Shown: positions 4,091 to 63,340 of the stretch, piece after piece | How positions within the stretch are numbered: position 1 is the stretch's first letter | How the letters are laid out: each line of letters starts with the position of its first letter | Origin: Candidatus Enterousia sp. | GTDB lineage: Bacteria > Pseudomonadota > Alphaproteobacteria > Rs-D84 | Assembly: GCA_045593685.1 (NCBI GenBank) | Contig: JAZNXD010000023.1 | Location: 1,715-65,714 of the forward strand | DNA: 64,000 nucleotides | Direction: 5' to 3' | The notes under the pieces: generated by a model | Databases searched by the model: none | Told to the model about the DNA's origin: nothing | Seen by the model: only the letters and a program-made list of their open reading frames with translations | Translations under genes and position numbers: made by a program

Positions 4091-4852
4091 ATGTTTGATT
4101 TAACTGTACTTGATTATATATATGTGGGCGTCATATTGGCGTCCACAATTTGGGCAACAATTCGTGGTGGTGTCTTTGAAACGATTGCGACATTATCGTG
4201 GGTCGTTGCGGCCGTCTCTGCCCGTTTTGCATCGCCTTGGTTGGACGGATTGTTTCAATCGTGGTTTGATTTGCCGGAATCCACCGTTGGTACATTGGTT
4301 GCGTCTTATTTTGTTATCTTTTTTGCCGTGTTAATTTTGGTTGGTTTTGTAAACCAAAAATTGCGCGATAAAATCCAGGACAGCATTATGAACGTCACCG
4401 ACAAGACGTTGGGGGTTATATTTGGCATTATTCGCGGTGTTGTTGTTATGGGTGTTTTTTACTGGGGGGCGTTGTGGTATTATTCTGATATGCCCACATT
4501 GCCTCAGTGGTTGGCCCAGGCACGTACACGCCCAATCATGCAAATGACGGCGGTAAAATTGGATGACTGGTTTTTTCCCGGTCCCGAAAACAGGTTGTTG
4601 GCCCGTGATGTCGCCGGTACACATCATGCGATTGAAATCTATAATAATCTGATAAATCCGGCCATAGGCGCGTCCAAAAAGGCGGACACGCCCGATGCCC
4701 CCACAAAGGCCAACGATGCGGACACCGGATACAAATCGTCTGAACGTGCCGCCCTTGAAAATCAATTACTGCAAATCGAAAGTGTTGCCCGTGCCGTGGA
4801 ACAGCGCGAAGCGCAACAAAACGATTCCGAAACTGTTGAAGAAACAGAATAA
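4091..4852 (+). CDS. cvpA: CvpA-family membrane protein (colicin V production protein homolog)
   Basis: N-terminus MFDLTVLDYIYVGVILASTIWATIRGGVFETIATLSWVVAAV and four predicted TM segments are typical of CvpA. Acidic C-terminal tail. Confidence 0.75.
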   Translation: MFDLTVLDYIYVGVILASTIWATIRGGVFETIATLSWVVAAVSARFASPWLDGLFQSWFDLPESTVGTLVASYFVIFFAVLILVGFVNQKLRDKIQDSIMNVTDKTLGVIFGIIRGVVVMGVFYWGALWYYSDMPTLPQWLAQARTRPIMQMTAVKLDDWFFPGPENRLLARDVAGTHHAIEIYNNLINPAIGASKKADTPDAPTKANDADTGYKSSERAALENQLLQIESVARAVEQREAQQNDSETVEETE

Positions 4853-4854
4853 CA

Positions 4855-4879
4855 AAATCCCCAATCGGGGATTTTTTTG
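4855..4879 (+). terminator. intrinsic terminator after cvpA
   Basis: ATCCCCAATCGGGGAT hairpin followed by TTTTTTT. Confidence 0.7.
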
Positions 4880-6574: not shown

Positions 6575-6593
6575 TATTAATTTCCTTTCCTAA

Positions 6594-6622
6594 TAAAAAA
6601 TCCCCATACGGGGATTTTTATT
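6594..6622. terminator. bidirectional intrinsic terminator
   Basis: AATCCCCATACGGGGATT hairpin flanked by A- and T-runs, between convergent genes. Confidence 0.7.
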
Positions 6623-9894: not shown

Positions 9895-9917
9895 GAATCC
9901 TCACCATCCGCCATAAA
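9895..9917 (+). repeat. direct repeat of the 3' end of tRNA-Ser (att-like scar)
   Basis: GAATCCTCACCATCCGCCATAAA matches GAATCCCTCACCATCCGCCATAAA at 9713-9736 with a single 1-nt indel. Confidence 0.6.
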
Positions 9918-9942
9918 AAACAAATGCCCAAACGGGCATTTT

Positions 9943-10188
9943 TTATATTCTGTTTTCTTTCAAAGCCGAAAATATTTCCGCAAATTCTGTCAAACTGGTA
10001 TCGGTTGCGTTTATAATTTTTGCAATCGTTGCGCACGATGGCCAACGCGGGGTTCCATCTGGGGAAAATTGTTTGCTTTTGTTAAAGGTTGTGGCATCCA
10101 GTCCGCTAAGCCGTGCCAAGCCCGAACAGGTTAACCCCCGTGATTTTGCCAGTCTTTCGATTGTTTTCCAAAGTAATTTATGCTGCAT
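9943..10188 (-). CDS. short HTH DNA-binding protein (phage-repressor N-terminal-domain-like)
   Basis: 81 aa from the ATG at 10188, preceded by AGGGGGAA. MQHKLLWKTIERLAKSRGLTCSGLARLSGLDATTFNKSK...PRWPS. Clear paralog of 44348..44593. Confidence 0.6.
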   Translation of the reverse strand: MQHKLLWKTIERLAKSRGLTCSGLARLSGLDATTFNKSKQFSPDGTPRWPSCATIAKIINATDTSLTEFAEIFSALKENRI

Positions 10189-26785: not shown

Positions 26786-26825
26786 GATGATGAAAATTTA
26801 GAACATTTCAAAAAAAATAACAACA

Positions 26826-26852
26826 CAAAAATTCCCCCAAACGGGGGATTTT
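26826..26852 (-). terminator. intrinsic terminator
   Basis: ATCCCCCGTTTGGGGGAAT hairpin plus T-run on the minus strand. Confidence 0.7.
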
Positions 26853-26854
26853 AT

Positions 26855-28033: not shown

Positions 28034-28049
28034 GAATTTCCCCCTGTGT

Positions 28050-28326
28050 AAAAAAAGACCGCCAGGGATTATTGACGGTCGGGGTGCTAGAAAAATCATA
28101 TCAAAGAATGACCCCGTTGGTCTTTGGGGCATATGCCCCTGTTGTATAACCAACGGCACCCCGACATTTAAACGGGGAAACATAACAAAAGGCGCATCCG
28201 CGCCATTTTTATGCGGATATCAGTGTACGTATCATACACCGCTTTGATAAAGGCTTTTCTAAGGCCCCGAACCCACATCCCTGTGGATTCATAAAAATTT
28301 TAACAAATAATCAAACCCAATGTCAA
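28050..28326 (-). promoter_or_regulatory. promoter plus ~240-nt structured leader with two intrinsic terminators (leader family copy C)
   Basis: On the minus strand: TTGACA (28321-28326), 18-nt spacer, TAAAAT (28297-28302); 5' hairpin CCACA/TGTGG; internal terminator GGCGCGGATGCGCC+T-run (28191-28204); complementary segments CCCCG / GTCGGGGTGC / GCACCCCGAC; terminal hairpin GACCG..CGGTC + T7 (28050-28080) immediately before the RBS. Confidence 0.45.
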
Positions 28327-28366
28327 TCAATTAGATAAATAAAAGTTTAGTAAATAATTTATCACA

Positions 28367-28674
28367 TTTGTCATCCCGTGGCTTGACCCCGGAACCCAGG
28401 TTGTATCTTCCTTTTGTCATCCCGTGGCTTGACCCCGGAACCCAGGTTGTACCTTCCTTTTGTCATCCCGTGGCTTGACCCCGGAACCCAGGTTGTATCT
28501 TCCCTTTGTCATCCCGTGGCTTGACCACGGAACCCAGGTTGTATCTTCCTTTTGTCATCCCGTGGCTTGACCCCGGCTCCCAGGTTGTATCTTCCCTTTG
28601 TCATCCCGTGGCTTGACCACGGGACCCAGGTTATACATCAACTTTGTCATTCCCGCGCAGGCGGGAACAGGGTC
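28367..28674. repeat. tandem array of six 46-bp repeats plus one variant unit
   Basis: The unit TTTGTCATCCCGTGGCTTGACC(C/A)CGG(A/G)ACCCAGGTTGTATCTTCC(T/C) starts at 28367, 28413, 28459, 28505, 28551 and 28597 (exact 46-bp period). A seventh unit at 28643 is the variant TTTGTCATTCCCGCGCAGGCGGGAACAGGGTC. Units contain the palindrome CCCGTGG..CCACGGG. Confidence 0.9.
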
Positions 28675-28797
28675 AAAAAAGTTAACAAACAGATGGATAA
28701 AAGTTTGGTTGTTTTTTTTACAATTTTTATTCACAAAACATAAAATGATTTTGTAAATTATTTACCAAACTAAGCTTTCATTTGTTGTGACAACAAA

Positions 28798-34135: not shown

Positions 34136-34223
34136 GACCTTTCCTATATCTATGTAACACACGGCTATCCTAGGAAAAAGATATTTATTTTGCAATAAAA
34201 AAACCGCCAAACGGCGGCTTTTA

Positions 34224-34490
34224 TTATTTTGCTTCGTCTTCTGGAACGACGGAAACCGTTCTGCGGTCGCCATTGCCCTTTTTGAACTTAACAATACCCG
34301 CAATCTTCGCAAAGATTGTATGATCTTTACCCATACCAACATTCAGGCCCGGGTGCACGGATGTGCCGCGCTGGCGAATAATGATATTGCCTGGGATTAC
34401 GCGGGACCCGCCAGACTTTTTAATACCTAATCTGCGCCCTTCCGAGTCGCGTCCGTTCGTTGATGCCGAACCAGCTTTCTTATGTGCCAT
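34224..34490 (-). CDS. rpmA: 50S ribosomal protein L27
   Basis: [28 protein letters not shown]...IIRQRGT..HPG.NVG.GKDHT.FA. Confidence 0.95.
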
Positions 34491-34802: not shown

Positions 34803-34956
34803 TTTCTTTCTCTTGTGTTTGTTTTGTTAAACATATTTTTACGTCATTTGACGAAAAGTTTATGCAAATTTTATGTTTTTTTATATAAAAGTCAAGCGTT
34901 TTGTCGAAAAAATTATGCAAAATTGCTGTTTTTTGTGCGTAAAAGAATTTTTTGCA

Positions 34957-34983
34957 TAAAAAACACCCCAAACGGGGTGTTTT
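34957..34983 (-). terminator. intrinsic terminator after rpmG
   Basis: ACACCCCGTTTGGGGTGT hairpin plus T-run on the minus strand. Confidence 0.65.
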
Positions 34984-35008
34984 AATAAACCGAAAAACGC
35001 AAACCGTA

Positions 35009-35284: not shown

Positions 35285-35369
<85 letters not shown>

Positions 35370-35446
35370 AAACTCACCTTGTTTGCGCGTATAACATCGG
35401 GCCATAGGCGACTACGAAGTGCTGCGAAGCGACTAGGAAGCGCAAC

Positions 35447-35478
35447 GCGACACCACGGTCAAGCGTCGGAATGACAAG
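35447..35478 (-). repeat. dispersed palindromic element (same family as the 28367 array, inverted)
   Basis: The reverse complement reads CTTGTCATTCCGACGCTTGACCGTGGTGTCGC (compare TTGTCATCCCGTGGCTTGACCACGG). Confidence 0.6.
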
Positions 35479-35576
35479 TTTGTTTAATTTAAAACAAATT
35501 TTAAATTTACGGACTGACAGAATTTTTTGCAAAAATTCTGTGGGGCGTTCAACTAAACTTTTATTCATTTTTCTAA

Positions 35577-35828
35577 TTGACATTTTGGTTGTGCGTTTAC
35601 TACAATACCCATGTCATGGCGGGTTGCCATGATGGGGTGTGAAGACCCGTTTATTGGCGTCAGAATAAGAACCTGTGGCGCATGCGTGCGCTGTTTTTTT
35701 ATTCTGATGATATTCTCCTGATCAATCCCACTTGGTCAGGAGGGCTTGTGAATATATTGAATAAGCAGCACAATTCCAATAAATTGTCTTCAACCTCCTG
35801 ACCACCTGAATAATTCGGTGGTTTTTTG
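35577..35828 (+). promoter_or_regulatory. promoter plus ~215-nt structured leader ending in an intrinsic terminator (leader family copy A)
   Basis: TTGACA (35577-82), 18-nt spacer, TACAAT (35601-06). Hairpin CATGGC/GCCATG. Conserved block GATGGGGTGTGAAGACCCGTTTATTGGCGTC. Internal GCGCA/TGCGC hairpin+T-run (35678-35700). CTCCTGA / GGTCAGGAGG / CCTCCTGACC triple. 17-nt loop GTGAATATATTGAATAA (35748-64). Terminator CCACC..GGTGG+T6 (35802-27). Confidence 0.55.
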
Positions 35829-35856
35829 TTTGTTATAACGGGGGAAATGTACGGGT

Positions 35857-36585
35857 TTGCGTCGTTTTTTGTTAATTTTTGCGATATTATTTATTGCGCC
35901 AATTGTTGGGCGCGCGGCCACATGTACATCAACCGAAACCGTCACCAAATGTGCCAAAATTCCGACAGAGATATATGCGTATGAATATGAAAACGGTCAA
36001 TATACTTCTGACTCATGGTTCGTTGGATACAATGATGTTGTATTATCGGGTAATTCTGCATCAAAAAATTTCGTTTCTAGTATTTTAGGAGCAACATGTA
36101 CGATAAATTCCCCCTTTAACGCAAGTATTGATGGCTCATTTGGACCGGCGGTGCCTGATTTTTATACTGCATACCAGGCGTGTGCAGAAATTGGTGCTTG
36201 GGAGATAAGAACTTTCTCTTTTATCAGCAAACTGGATGGTGATATATGCCCGGACGGTTTTTATACGGTTCCATACAATGTTTCCTGTGGCACCGGCATG
36301 GTTGATACGGCCAATGTGCCGAATTGCAGCGATGATACATCTGGCGAATCATGTTTAATTCCCGCCACATCAGCCCCCGCACCAGAGGTTTTATGCACCA
36401 TTGGTATCAGCCAAATTAAAACATCAACCGGATTATCCTTTGCGTTATATGCAGAAAAAAAGACCCAGCCATCATTGGCAATAAAATATAATAATGGCAT
36501 TTGCTATGGCAAGTTAGAATCTGGAAGTGCATCTAGTACAATAAATTTCAACTATAATGACGCCGTTTATCATCTGGTAAACTAA
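35857..36585 (+). CDS. secreted cysteine-containing hypothetical protein
   Basis: TTG start with GGGGGAA SD upstream. Signal peptide MRRFLLIFAILFIAPIVGRAA. 242 aa, ~12 Cys. I recognise no family. Confidence 0.55.
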   Translation: MRRFLLIFAILFIAPIVGRAATCTSTETVTKCAKIPTEIYAYEYENGQYTSDSWFVGYNDVVLSGNSASKNFVSSILGATCTINSPFNASIDGSFGPAVPDFYTAYQACAEIGAWEIRTFSFISKLDGDICPDGFYTVPYNVSCGTGMVDTANVPNCSDDTSGESCLIPATSAPAPEVLCTIGISQIKTSTGLSFALYAEKKTQPSLAIKYNNGICYGKLESGSASSTINFNYNDAVYHLVN

Positions 36586-36662
36586 CCGCTCTCTTTGTCT
36601 CGCTTGCCGGGAACCGCCCATGCAAATACTTATTTGTGCGGGCCCCAGGGGCATAACACCAC

Positions 36663-36690
36663 TTTTGTCATTCCCGCGACGGCGGGGACC
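36663..36690 (+). repeat. dispersed palindromic element (GTCATTCCCGCG...CGGGGAC type)
   Basis: TTTTGTCATTCCCGCGACGGCGGGGACC resembles the variant unit at 28643. Confidence 0.6.
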
Positions 36691-36726
36691 ATTGCCTTTA
36701 CTTGCATTAAGCCACCACTAACCACT

Positions 36727-42375: not shown

Positions 42376-42582
42376 TTGAAAATCATACACGATTTTTTTA
42401 TCATGACAACGTCGCAATGGTGTTTATTGCGATGGGGCGTCGAAACCCGTTATAAGGCATCGATTCAGATGAAAAAAAACTCCAACCCCGGGTTGGAGGG
42501 CGGTGAATATATTGAATAAACCCGCTATTCCTTATAATAGTTTCGAACCTCCAACCGCTTTGACCAACAATGCGGTTTTTTT
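42376..42582 (+). promoter_or_regulatory. promoter plus ~175-nt structured leader ending in an intrinsic terminator (leader family copy B)
   Basis: TTGAAA (42376-81), 17-nt spacer, TATCAT (42399-404). Hairpin CGCAAT/ATTGCG. Block GATGGGGCGTCGAAACCCGTTATAAGGCATC (42431-61). CTCCAACC / GGTTGGAGG / CCTCCAACC triple. Identical 17-nt loop GTGAATATATTGAATAA (42503-19). Terminator ACCGC..GCGGT+T7 (42554-82). Confidence 0.55.
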
Positions 42583-42600
42583 GAAAGAAAGGGGGAAATT

Positions 42601-43857
42601 TTGAAACGCTATTTTGTTCGGTTTGTGGGTACGGTTTTATCTGCGTTAACGGCATTTTTGACAACGGATCGTGCCGAATCCGCGCCACATTTTGATTATG
42701 AAAAAACATTCACATTGGGCAATGATAAATATACAATCACCGTTTACACCGGTGCGGCATGGTACGTTGGTTGGGTAAACCTAAACCCAAAAACAAATTC
42801 CGATGCCACGGTGGATTCAAGATGGAACAATGTATGGCGCTCTTATAATGCAGAATATTATGATCAGCCAATGGTTATCGATTATAACGCCACATCGGGC
42901 AGTTCGTCATCTGGGTATACCGGGGTTTTGATATCCGAACGCAGATTCACACGACAAATGGACTCTTATAACCCGATAAAGTTTAGCCGTTATGTGGATT
43001 CCGATGCCGAGCAGTATTTGCTGTTTGATAAATGGGTCAATTGGATTATTGATATGCCATTACTGGCATATTCGCGCAGCAGCAGTACATTTACCAATGT
43101 TGGTTGTTGTCAATATACCCCGACCGGACACACCCCGGGCAGTTACGGCTTTTCATACAGTGGTGATGGCCGTGCTGCGGATGTATGCCCGTGTTTCTAT
43201 ACCACCGCGGACAAGGTTTATACCGGTAATTCTTGCGAACAATATCAAGGCAGGGGCAAAGATTTTTGTACCGGTACATCGGTAATGGGTGTTGGTGATG
43301 AAACCAGTTCTAATTGGCCCGCCGTGGTGCGCGACGTGTTCTTTTGCTATACATATTCGGGCTGCACCAGCAGTGACACAATGTATAAATCATTTGACCC
43401 TGTAAATTATACGGGGCTAAGTGGTTGTCACATGATACGTGTCCCAATGGTCGGTTTGGTTGGTGCATATGAAAATGATTTGCAATATAATGTCGATTAT
43501 GTTTTGTTCGCAAACGGCAGTGTTGGTTTTAACGTGTTTAACCCCGAATTGGTCGAAGAAATGGATTGCGAAGCGGGCTCTAACAATCAAAAGTTCATGA
43601 GTTGCGCATCCGGCGCCACGCCAAATCTTGGTTATTTAACGTACGGTGGAACGGATGGTTGCTATACATGCCCAACTGTTGCTGGGATTTCGGTTGGTGG
43701 TTATGCGCTAAGTAATACTTCCTTCTATGTGGACGAAGAAACCGCGGGTGTTGGTGCGTGTAAATTTATAAAGCCAACATCGTCGGACACCGGTGGTGTA
43801 TTTGAGTTGACCACGTACGCGGGCGCCAGCCAAACCTGTTATGGATTTGAATCATAA
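42601..43857 (+). CDS. secreted cysteine-containing hypothetical protein
   Basis: TTG start after GGGGGAAATT. N-terminal signal/anchor MKRYFVRFVGTVLSALTAFLTT. 418 aa, ~20 Cys, Tyr/Gly/Ser/Thr-rich. I recognise no family. Confidence 0.55.
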   Translation: MKRYFVRFVGTVLSALTAFLTTDRAESAPHFDYEKTFTLGNDKYTITVYTGAAWYVGWVNLNPKTNSDATVDSRWNNVWRSYNAEYYDQPMVIDYNATSGSSSSGYTGVLISERRFTRQMDSYNPIKFSRYVDSDAEQYLLFDKWVNWIIDMPLLAYSRSSSTFTNVGCCQYTPTGHTPGSYGFSYSGDGRAADVCPCFYTTADKVYTGNSCEQYQGRGKDFCTGTSVMGVGDETSSNWPAVVRDVFFCYTYSGCTSSDTMYKSFDPVNYTGLSGCHMIRVPMVGLVGAYENDLQYNVDYVLFANGSVGFNVFNPELVEEMDCEAGSNNQKFMSCASGATPNLGYLTYGGTDGCYTCPTVAGISVGGYALSNTSFYVDEETAGVGACKFIKPTSSDTGGVFELTTYAGASQTCYGFES

Positions 43858-43913: not shown

Positions 43914-43951
43914 TGTCATCCCACGGCTTGACCGCGGGACCCAGGTTTGTC
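43914..43951 (+). repeat. dispersed palindromic element (same family as the 28367 array)
   Basis: TGTCATCCCACGGCTTGACCGCGGGACCCAGGTTTGTC. It is the source of the spurious VIPRLDRGTQ peptide in ORF 43867..44172. Confidence 0.7.
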
Positions 43952-47189: not shown

Positions 47190-47301
47190 ATAAAAAAATA
47201 ACTTTTCTTCTTTACTAATATTCATATTTCATGATAAAATATACAGTAAGAACAAAACGGATTTGTTCTGTCCAAAAAACTTTAGTAAAAGGAGAGAAAG
47301 G

Positions 47302-47763
47302 ATGGGATTTTTATTTAAAAGATCTGCAAAAAAAGTAGAAGCAGCAAAACCGGTTGCAAAACCTGCTGCCAAGAAAGCACCTGCGAAAAAAGTAGCGGCA
47401 AAACCTGCTGCCAAGAAAGCACCTGCGAAAAAAGTAGCGGCAAAACCTGTTGCGAAGAAAGCACCTGCGAAAAAAGTGGCGGCTGCAAAACCTGTTGCAA
47501 AAAAAGCACCTGCGAAAAAAGTAGCGGCAAAACCTGTTGCGAAAAAAGCACCTGCGAAAAAAGTAGCGGCAAAACCTGTTGCAAAAAAAGCACCTGCGAA
47601 AAAAGTAGTGGCAAAACCCGTTGCGAAAAAAGCACCTGCGAAAAAAGTAGCGGCAAAACCAGTTGCAAAAAAAGCACCTGCGAAAAAAGTAGCGACCAAA
47701 CCGGTTGCAAAAAAGCCATGCGCCAAAAAGGCATGTGCAAAAAAAGTTTGCAAGAAAAAATAA
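47302..47763 (+). CDS. histone H1-like Lys/Ala-rich repeat protein
   Basis: The ATG at 47302 follows AAAGGAGAGAAAGG. About 8.5 copies of [14 protein letters not shown] and a Cys-containing [17 protein letters not shown] tail. Has its own promoter-like TTTACT-18-TAAAAT and its own terminator. Confidence 0.7.
47341..47718 (+). repeat. 42-bp in-frame tandem repeat (coding, ~9 copies)
   Basis: GCAAAACCTGTTGCGAAAAAAGCACCTGCGAAAAAAGTAGCG-type units. They generate long antisense ORF artefacts (47229..47753, 47315..47740). Confidence 0.9.
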
Positions 47764-47774
47764 TCTAATCTTTA

Positions 47775-47848
47775 CCCCGCGTTTGCGGGGTTTTATTTAA
47801 ATCAGTATCAGTCAGATAATCGTGCACAGTCTGACTGATATTTTTTTA
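47775..47848 (+). terminator. two consecutive intrinsic terminators between the H1-like and capsid genes
   Basis: CCCCGCGTTTGCGGGG + TTTT (47775-94). An 11-bp stem TATCAGTCAGA/TCTGACTGATA + T7 (47806-47). Confidence 0.6.
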
Positions 47849-63017: not shown

Positions 63018-63311
63018 ATGGCAACAGTAACAAGAAGTGATTTTGCAAACAGATTGCGTGAACGTTTTGGATTGACAACGGCGGATGCATATAAAATGGT
63101 CGATGTTGTCTTTGATGAAATTCGTGCGGCCCTGATTCACGGGGAAGAGGTTAAATTTGCCGGTCTGGGCAGTTTCAAGATTTTAGAGAAAAATGCGCGC
63201 ATGGGGCGCAATCCCAAAACAGGCGAGAGTGCAATTATCTCTGCACGTCGTGTTGCCACCTTTCGCCCCAGCAATGAATTCCGTGAACGTGTCGCGGCGG
63301 GCACAAAATAA
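63018..63311 (+). CDS. ihfA: integration host factor subunit alpha
   Basis: TVTRSDFANRL...GLGSFKILEKNARMGRNPKTGESAIISARRVATFRPS. fabH-ihfA synteny is typical of Alphaproteobacteria. Confidence 0.85.
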   Translation: MATVTRSDFANRLRERFGLTTADAYKMVDVVFDEIRAALIHGEEVKFAGLGSFKILEKNARMGRNPKTGESAIISARRVATFRPSNEFRERVAAGTK

Positions 63312-63340
63312 AAATCCCCCGTTTGGGGGATTTTTTTTAA
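63309..63340. terminator. bidirectional intrinsic terminator
   Basis: AATCCCCCGTTTGGGGGATT hairpin flanked by A5 and T8. Confidence 0.7.

Follow-up and report, generated by a model that had tools for sequence, protein, structure and literature searches.

We identified in Candidatus Enterousia and related gut alphaproteobacterial MAGs a family of structured leader RNAs that has not been described previously and that has both a terminator fold and an anti-terminator fold. Two sets of helices covary across its members, the two sets exclude each other, and the terminator-permitting set (fold I) is much the more stable. With moderate confidence, we propose that these leaders are transcription attenuators of a new family, off by default, which a trans-acting factor would turn on by capturing the second fold (fold II). 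Members of Candidatus Enterousia (order Rs-D84) live in the gut, are uncultured, and combine genomes of about 0.75-1.0 Mb with a strongly reduced metabolism (PMC12306168). The window, that is, the whole 64-kb stretch of DNA analysed here, contains three leaders, A, B and C, and copy A is laid out as follows, with the rows for copies B and C after it.

35577-35856, plus strand: copy A leader, one of the three leaders in the 64-kb window.
35577-35606, plus strand: sigma-70 promoter of copy A, TTGACA 35577-82, 18-nt spacer, TACAAT 35601-06 (direct reading).
35613-35633, plus strand: P1, the 5'-terminal hairpin GUCAUGGC / GCCAUGAU with loop GGGUU (MFE fold).
35634-35657, plus strand: 5' strand of the closing stem, consisting of G1 GGGG (P2), UGAAGAC (P2b), a CC bulge and GUUUAUUGG (P3).
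Within 35634-35657, plus strand: Pa, in which GGG of G1 pairs locally with the CCC after P2b in fold II (covariation).
35658-35709, plus strand: P4, a long hairpin with complementary A-rich and U-rich arms flanking its tip (MFE fold).
About 35676-35700, plus strand: P4 tip, a terminator-like GC hairpin with a U-run.
35715-35743, plus strand: P5, the U:X hairpin, with a proposed anti-antiterminator role (direct reading, MFE fold).
35715-35721, plus strand: U, CTCCTGA; extended form CUCCUGAUCAA at 35715-25.
35734-35743, plus strand: X, GGTCAGGAGG / GGUCAGGAGG.
35744-35766, plus strand: P6, hairpin GCUU/AAGC with the conserved loop GUGAAUAUAUUGAAUAA / GAAUAUAUUGAAUAA / GTGAATATATTGAATAA (direct reading).
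35770-35787, plus strand: P7, local hairpin ACAAUU / AAUUGU around the P3 3' strand (covariation).
35776-35784, plus strand: P3 3' strand, CCAAUAAAU.
35786-35803, plus strand: P2b 3' strand GUCUUCA, then D (covariation).
35794-35803, plus strand: D, CCTCCTGACC / CCUCCUGACC, partner of G1 (fold I) or of X (fold II).
35800-35827, plus strand: intrinsic terminator GACCACC / GGUGGUU plus U-run (T6), the GACC of its 5' arm being common to D.
35840-36585, plus strand: RBS GGGGG at 35840-44, then the ORF from TTG 35857.
42376-42600, plus strand: copy B, promoter TTGAAA-17-TATCAT, leader 42410-42582, U/X/D of the CCAACC class (140.7 bits).
42601-43857, plus strand: gene after copy B, encoding a 418-aa secreted protein.
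28034-28326, minus strand: copy C, with U CCCCG, X UCGGGGUGC, D GCACCCCGA and terminator GACCGUC/GGCGGUC.

Every coordinate that an earlier note on this DNA had given for the promoter and its spacer, U, X and D, the GCTT/AAGC hairpin and its 17-nt loop, the T6 terminator and the TTG at 35857 was right on re-reading, and the 5' hairpin, the GATGGGG... block and the GC hairpin with its U-run (inside 35658-35709) were all present. The note had recognised the block GATGGGGTGTGAAGACCCGTTTATTGG but missed that it pairs with 35776-35798 and so forms the 5' strand of a long closing stem. The ORF at 35857-36585 encodes a Cys-rich protein of 242 aa with a signal-peptide-like N terminus and without a Pfam domain. 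All three leaders folded far better than dinucleotide-shuffled sequences, with z-scores of -6.5 for copy A, -4.3 for copy B and -5.4 for copy C.

The GC hairpin and U-run inserted in P4 also occur in other copies of the CUGACC class, in copy C and in its subfamily. In the long-P4 copies this tip (35676-35700; about 28185-28215 in copy C) looks like a canonical terminator, with 5-7 U and a complementary A-tract, and it could terminate transcription early, at about +90, or act on the opposite strand. Elsewhere in the window, a stereotyped gene-end terminator of the form AAAA-CCCC-NNNN-GGGG-TTTT recurs at 4844-4878, 6587-6621, 9911-9945, 26820-26854, 34190-34224, 34951-34985 and 63303-63337; with an A-tract and a T-tract on both sides, it looks bidirectional.

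The family proved far larger than the three copies that had been noticed at first. Copies B and C show the same order of elements as copy A, as claimed, and a descriptor without any sequence input (a U-X hairpin, a 9-nt D complementary to X, a terminator 5' arm overlapping D, and a T-run) picked out copies A, B and C and nothing else in the 64 kb, and had no match in 40 shuffled windows. What had been missed was the membership elsewhere, which exceeds 120 further copies. A pattern scan covering one genome per species listed more than 115 stretches, a lower bound, nearly all of them from Candidatus Enterousia and gut alphaproteobacterial MAGs; with six stretches from unrelated taxa (taken as chance), three variant copies and one partial copy set aside, 112 true members were among the matches listed. 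A covariance model, which the note had proposed, was built from 26 members and searched at E<=0.001 over 785 kb of loci from Candidatus Enterousia and related gut alphaproteobacterial MAGs, where it found 124 copies; both helix sets covary in them above shuffles. Single-sequence folds of A, B, C and 25 homologues gave one common architecture.

Conservation of the leader was followed alongside that of protein B, whose homologues are 85-37% identical, homologous leaders preceding the orthologues of 85-56% identity. The leader 3' half is almost unaltered before the 85% and 71% homologues; before the latter it differs at 2 positions in ~112 nt (~98% identical), with a locus DNA identity of 77%, and this comparison with a 71% identical protein indicates that the leader is under stronger constraint than the protein. 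The 56% identical homologue (L002) has a full leader with compensatory changes in P1, P3, P4 and P6, the opposite of the uncompensated homologues that the note had named as evidence against its reading. The two most distant orthologues, syntenic after priA, have a ~55-nt leader that keeps (G/A)UGAAUAUAUU / (G/A)TGAATATATT. The window itself is syntenic with several member-bearing contigs at 66-84% identity.

These RNAs matched no known class, and the note too had been unable to place the leader in one. Against the 4227 models of Rfam 15, among them T-box leaders, known riboswitches and alphaproteobacterial sRNAs, searches at gathering and at E-value thresholds gave no family: the whole window matched only three tRNAs, region 35500-35900 at E<=10 returned only far sub-threshold noise, and fifteen loci with about 30 copies matched only tmRNA and tRNA. 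The loop sequence was not found in the literature searched, and the Enterousia literature searched describes no RNA motif.

Fold I consists of a ~20-bp long-range closing stem (P2/P2b/P3) and the U:X hairpin P5, and it leaves the terminator free. In copy A, GGGG 35634-37 pairs with the CCUC of D (P2), UGAAGAC with GUCUUCA (P2b) and GUUUAUUGG with CCAAUAAAU (P3); P4, P5 and P6 lie inside this stem, forming a four-way junction P3/P4/P5/P6. In fold II, X:D (9-10 bp) closes a three-way junction with P6 and P7 and takes 3-4 nt from the terminator 5' arm. The pairings are exclusive: X pairs with U or with D, and G1 with D or with CCC, while P3 and P7 cannot coexist because the P7 loop is the P3 strand, without a linker. 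The earlier reading of U:X, X:D and D:terminator as the competing helices of an expression platform is now backed by covariation over the 124 homologues; its fold logic stands, but it lacked the long-range closing stem of the dominant fold and the covarying hairpins Pa and P7.

Fold I was paired in 88.6% of cells over the 124 sequences, compared with 70.5% after shuffling and at most 54% with slid partners, its counts being favoured by alignment A4, which the model fitted to fold I. Its 775 double-change cells were reached by 0 of 500 shuffles, a control that overstates significance because many of the 124 sequences are related. P2b was 96.5% paired, and as many as four pair types occur at a single position (e.g. 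CG:50 AU:44 GC:19 UA:7). The base of P4 was 97.8% paired (alignment A4) and P5 97.2%; the P5 positions by which the two classes are told apart show AU:84/UA:32 and AU:82/GC:32. Between copies A and B alone, seven base pairs of P2b and P3 are altered on both sides. MAFFT-only alignments misaligned P1, P3 and P4, so P1 was assessed by a partner-swap test and the others by the model-based alignment. The P1 hairpin occurs in 94% of 123 copies, and its cognate arms fold at -10.5 kcal/mol versus -4.2 kcal/mol for swapped arms.

The helices of fold II covary as well. Pa, X:D and P7 were 92.7% paired in the 124 sequences, compared with 84.8% after shuffling and at most 50% with slid partners, and their 151 double-change cells were likewise reached by 0 of 500 shuffles, with the same overstatement from related sequences. 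RNAalifold, run on a plain MAFFT alignment, picked X:D and Pa. In Pa, where G1 has changed from G to A, the partner has changed from C to U (GC:69, AU:26, GU:23, other:3); the fold I partner of G1 is an invariant U that accepts either base, so this change speaks specifically for Pa. P7 occurs as CUAUA/UAUAG, CAAUU/AAUUG and GCA/UGC, with a fourth variant, UCAU/AUGA, in copy C, and includes a covarying pair that is UA in 69 and AU in 44.

By constrained folding, fold I together with the terminator lies below fold II by a median of 12-15 kcal/mol. A fold so much more stable implies that the default should be termination and that any regulator must favour fold II, presumably during transcription. 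In 77 of 122 copies, a TATAAT-like -10 box precedes the GGGG of P2 at a constant distance of 27-28 nt, which places the predicted TSS at P1, and a hairpin followed by at least 4 T is present in 117 of 123 copies (median 6 T, -10 kcal/mol). The overlap between D and the terminator 5' arm that the note had claimed holds in 105 of 118 copies, where the terminator hairpin takes 3-4 nt of D beyond CCUCC; X:D would thereby remove about half of the terminator stem. A hairpin with a U-run thus lies between promoter and ORF and overlaps a covarying alternative helix, the arrangement by which an intrinsic-terminator attenuator is recognised.

From these elements the following mechanism can be proposed. 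In copy A, a ~215-nt 5' leader RNA would be made from its own strong promoter, P1 first. If the 5' half then zips onto the 3' half and U:X forms, D would be held only at its CCUC end, the terminator would form and transcription would stop before the gene, which is the predicted OFF default. If instead X pairs with the whole of D, forming the three-way junction with P6 and P7, the 5' part would fold locally (Pa); the last 3-4 nt of D belong to the terminator 5' arm, so the terminator would be weakened and RNA polymerase would read into the gene. A trans-acting factor that captures the X:D/P6/P7 domain on the nascent RNA would turn expression ON, and the set under such control would be secreted Cys-rich proteins and small XRE regulators. 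Fold II could also be a mere co-transcriptional folding intermediate. Truncated units comprising only X, P6, P7 and D occur in one locus (L058), which indicates that the fold II domain can stand alone.

The factor would most likely be an RNA-binding protein that recognises the P6 loop (GAAUA...AAUAA). This loop is near-invariant while the stems vary: the 17-mer is identical, including its three free positions, in 91 of the 112 pattern matches listed. Where the loop was not imposed, its first three bases vary (GCG, UCG, CCG, CUG, ACG, CGG), and divergent loops, 13-18 nt overall, keep the 5' GAAUA and the 3' AAUAA; one copy has a GC hairpin inserted mid-loop with both half-motifs kept. As read from these sequences, the motif is bipartite and single-stranded. 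A trans-acting RNA-binding factor is favoured because the loop is the only strongly conserved element unexplained by pairing, because the motif is bipartite and tolerant of spacing, because the loop persists in truncated and minimal leaders, and because fold I forms without help. P6 is present in both folds, so it is not obvious how a protein bound to its loop would distinguish U:X from X:D. The complement of the loop gave only chance-level matches in the window and 0.92 Mb of loci, with no conserved trans partner among them. Kissing between the P1 and P6 loops was considered and dropped, because the P1 loop varies (GUGUU, GAGUU, GGUU) without staying complementary to the P6 loop, which is invariant.

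A riboswitch, a stand-alone small RNA and a non-switching UTR are possible explanations, each of which we rank below an attenuator controlled by a trans-acting factor. In a riboswitch for a small molecule or second messenger, the four-way junction of fold I would be the aptamer, and the ligand would favour fold I and termination. A multi-stem junction followed by a terminator has the right shape, two sensor subtypes on one platform would be in keeping with it, and the leaders stand in many copies per genome before surface or secreted proteins and regulators, as c-di-GMP riboswitches do. Yet fold I is already 12-15 kcal/mol better and has a 20-bp closing stem, so that no ligand is needed to form it, and the conserved unpaired bases of fold I are nearly all explained by pairing in fold II, the exceptions being the AU-rich P6 loop and an A-rich linker. 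The downstream genes indicate no metabolite either, and Rfam offers no match. We therefore regard a riboswitch as rather unlikely. The earlier note had called the leader riboswitch-like; where that word means a small-molecule sensor, the stable terminator-permitting fold instead points to a factor that would promote anti-termination.

Copy C departs from copies A and B at the putative sensor. It keeps all platform elements and has, in place of P6, a longer hairpin with UAUACAACAG...AAAG. The covariance model (R1) does not detect copy C, and its two homologues (L011 and L034; 76% mean column identity) were found by the sequence-independent descriptor; among the three, P1, P2b and the long hairpin in place of P6 carry compensatory changes. 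Judged by these alignments, copy C represents a second subfamily, and its combination of the common platform with another putative sensor hairpin suggests a second input. No relationship could be detected among the proteins downstream of A, B and C, and gene duplication therefore does not account for the leader they have in common. No exact-protein record was found for window proteins B and C.

We then considered what the leaders precede. Ninety-seven non-redundant downstream proteins start within about 110 nt of D. An N-terminal hydrophobic run is present in 62 of the 97, and 40 of those 62 contain at least 3.5% Cys. Any single XRE-type HTH family accounts for up to 10 matches among the 97; HsdM, UvrD-like, Bro-N, ABC and outer-membrane proteins occur in small numbers, and the majority lack a Pfam domain. 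At three loci (L067 1000-1720; L098 1900-2530, minus strand; L058 2960-3850, minus strand), a single gene is preceded by a tandem array of two to four units. Units of these arrays have their own promoter and no ORF between them, and some lack the terminator, others the 5' half.

Tandem promoter-terminator units without an intervening gene fit a stand-alone RNA as well as a leader. On such a reading, the RNA would act in trans as a small RNA, for instance through its CCUCC segments, and the downstream genes would be expressed by incidental read-through only; the strength of the terminators and the restriction to two main U/X/D classes across species, a conservation beyond the needs of cis-pairing, would agree with it. 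Against it, ~90% of copies lie directly upstream of a co-oriented ORF, with the RBS 10-40 nt past the U-run, too close for a further promoter to fit in. In the stable fold the CCUCC segments are base-paired, a trans-acting RNA would have no use for the three-way covariation among U, X and D or for the overlap between D and the terminator, and no complementary target motif was found in 0.9 Mb. A trans-acting small RNA thus appears improbable, somewhat more so than a riboswitch. We give slightly less credit still to a constitutive structured 5' UTR, a stabiliser or fixed-strength 'dimmer' in which nothing switches and the alternative helices guide co-transcriptional folding. The strong preference for fold I would suit it, but covariation maintains X:D, Pa and P7, helices exclusive to the alternative fold, and the near-invariant 15-nt loop would have no role.

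The chromosomal setting of the leaders offers further observations. Window segments 35285-35366 and 35391-36700 were compared with two relatives (L063 and L030). Copy A and its gene lie directly after a tRNA-Leu (anticodon-loop UAG in the Rfam alignment). The corresponding tRNA-Leu/gap slot in the two relatives contains a leader and a small XRE HTH gene in the opposite orientation, and this position may therefore be one where cassettes of a leader and a gene are swapped. Directly upstream of the copy C promoter, at 28321-28688 of the window, stand 6-8 tandem copies of a 46-nt unit (TGTCATCCCGTGGCTTGACCCCGGAACCCAGGTT...); single related copies stand at 43914-43947, after gene B, and at about 35455-35480, before copy A, and similar GTCATTGCGAGG...GTGGCAATCC elements lie beside leaders in the three loci with tandem arrays. 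This unit may be a REP-like repeat tied to the leader cassettes. A separate set of ~11 imperfect 42-nt (14-codon) tandem repeats at 47283-47780, 60-86% identical to a reference copy, is probably a repetitive protein-coding segment.

Multiple copies, long-range inverted repeats resembling terminal repeats and the different cassettes held by the tRNA-Leu/gap slot could all be read as marks of a mobile element or MITE end, and the palindrome AATATATT in the loop as a DNA-level operator, in either case without RNA structure. We rejected a MITE or transposon end, which the note had itself raised as a counter-explanation: the arm sequences differ among copies with compensatory changes that keep complementarity, G-U pairs are frequent and on the sense strand only (e.g. 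GU:92 at P2), and the orientation is fixed relative to promoter, terminator and gene. A two-half-site operator would be intolerant of half-motif spacing that runs from 13 to 18 nt and of the hairpin inserted in one loop, and DNA-level explanations as a whole appear very unlikely.

Leader-peptide attenuation, in which ribosomes would translate MNILNK... from the GUG of the loop behind an SD-like X, was rejected and is the least credible explanation. In its favour, an AGGAGG precedes the GUG by 3-5 nt, a 34-aa ORF was annotated by a gene caller and one distant orthologue has AUG for GUG. Yet ORF length ranges from 7 to 356 codons, the stop codon is scattered between 26 nt upstream and 1025 nt downstream of D, neither fold leaves X unpaired, and divergent copies found without imposing the loop replace the GUG by the triplets listed above, so that it is not a start codon. 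The spurious 34-codon ORF MNILNK... of the public gene caller (L005 2-106; window 42503-42604) extends from the P6 loop across the terminator into the start of gene B, and annotations that contain such calls may hide the leader.

The density of three leaders in the 64-kb window, and of as many as four in one 8-kb locus, suggests dozens per genome, which is a considerable investment at this genome size. Most of the genes they would control encode fast-evolving secreted Cys-rich proteins or small regulators, whose likely place of action is the interface with a host or partner. A family so large, so strongly covarying and without a class is a clean 'orphan' regulatory RNA; the identity of its effector would reveal how surface and secreted proteins are regulated and might add a riboswitch or antiterminator class. 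Tentatively, the leaders may form a clade-specific modular RNA regulon, in which one bistable platform with interchangeable type 1 (GAAUA...AAUAA) and type 2 (UAUACAACAG...AAAG) sensors would control much of the secretome and the small XRE regulators in response to inputs that are new. If so, these inputs would be new riboswitch ligands, a new antiterminator protein family, or cross-talk among the abundant terminated leaders via shared U/X/D.

Among known systems, the trp-type 1-2-3-4, PyrR-controlled pyr and T-box leaders likewise have four successive segments (here U, X, D and the terminator 3' arm) that form overlapping helices, an intrinsic terminator just before the RBS and their own constitutive-looking promoter. 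Unlike trp-type leaders, the Enterousia leader has no conserved leader peptide, and it goes beyond the 1-2-3-4 scheme in that its 5' half is complementary piecewise to the 3' domain (P2, P2b, P3), with Pa and P7 as placeholder hairpins. Unlike the T-box, its X:D helix is a continuous 9-10 bp without a bulge, and it does not match RF00230. The c-di-GMP-I and -II riboswitches also combine a multi-helix junction with a following terminator and stand in many copies before heterogeneous non-metabolic genes; in contrast to them, the Enterousia leaders match no model, have a self-stable 20-bp closing stem and have few conserved junction nucleotides. AbcR/alpha-r15-type 'cuckoo' RNAs are multi-copy alphaproteobacterial sRNAs with CCUCC anti-SD motifs, in promoter-terminator units that are sometimes tandem, as here; the present family differs in having no Rfam match, in its base-paired CCUCC and in lying almost always directly upstream of a co-oriented ORF. 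The targets of BglG/SacY/LicT (RAT), ANTAR and HutP also have a stable default terminator fold and an anti-terminator that would need stabilisation from outside, with a short conserved single-stranded motif beside the anti-terminator helix and several targets per genome. RAT is a 29-nt hairpin and the ANTAR target a pair of hexaloop hairpins; the Enterousia anti-terminator, by comparison, is a three-way junction of ~70 nt, and its GAAUA...AAUAA motif, compared by eye, is unlike the RAT, ANTAR and HutP sites.
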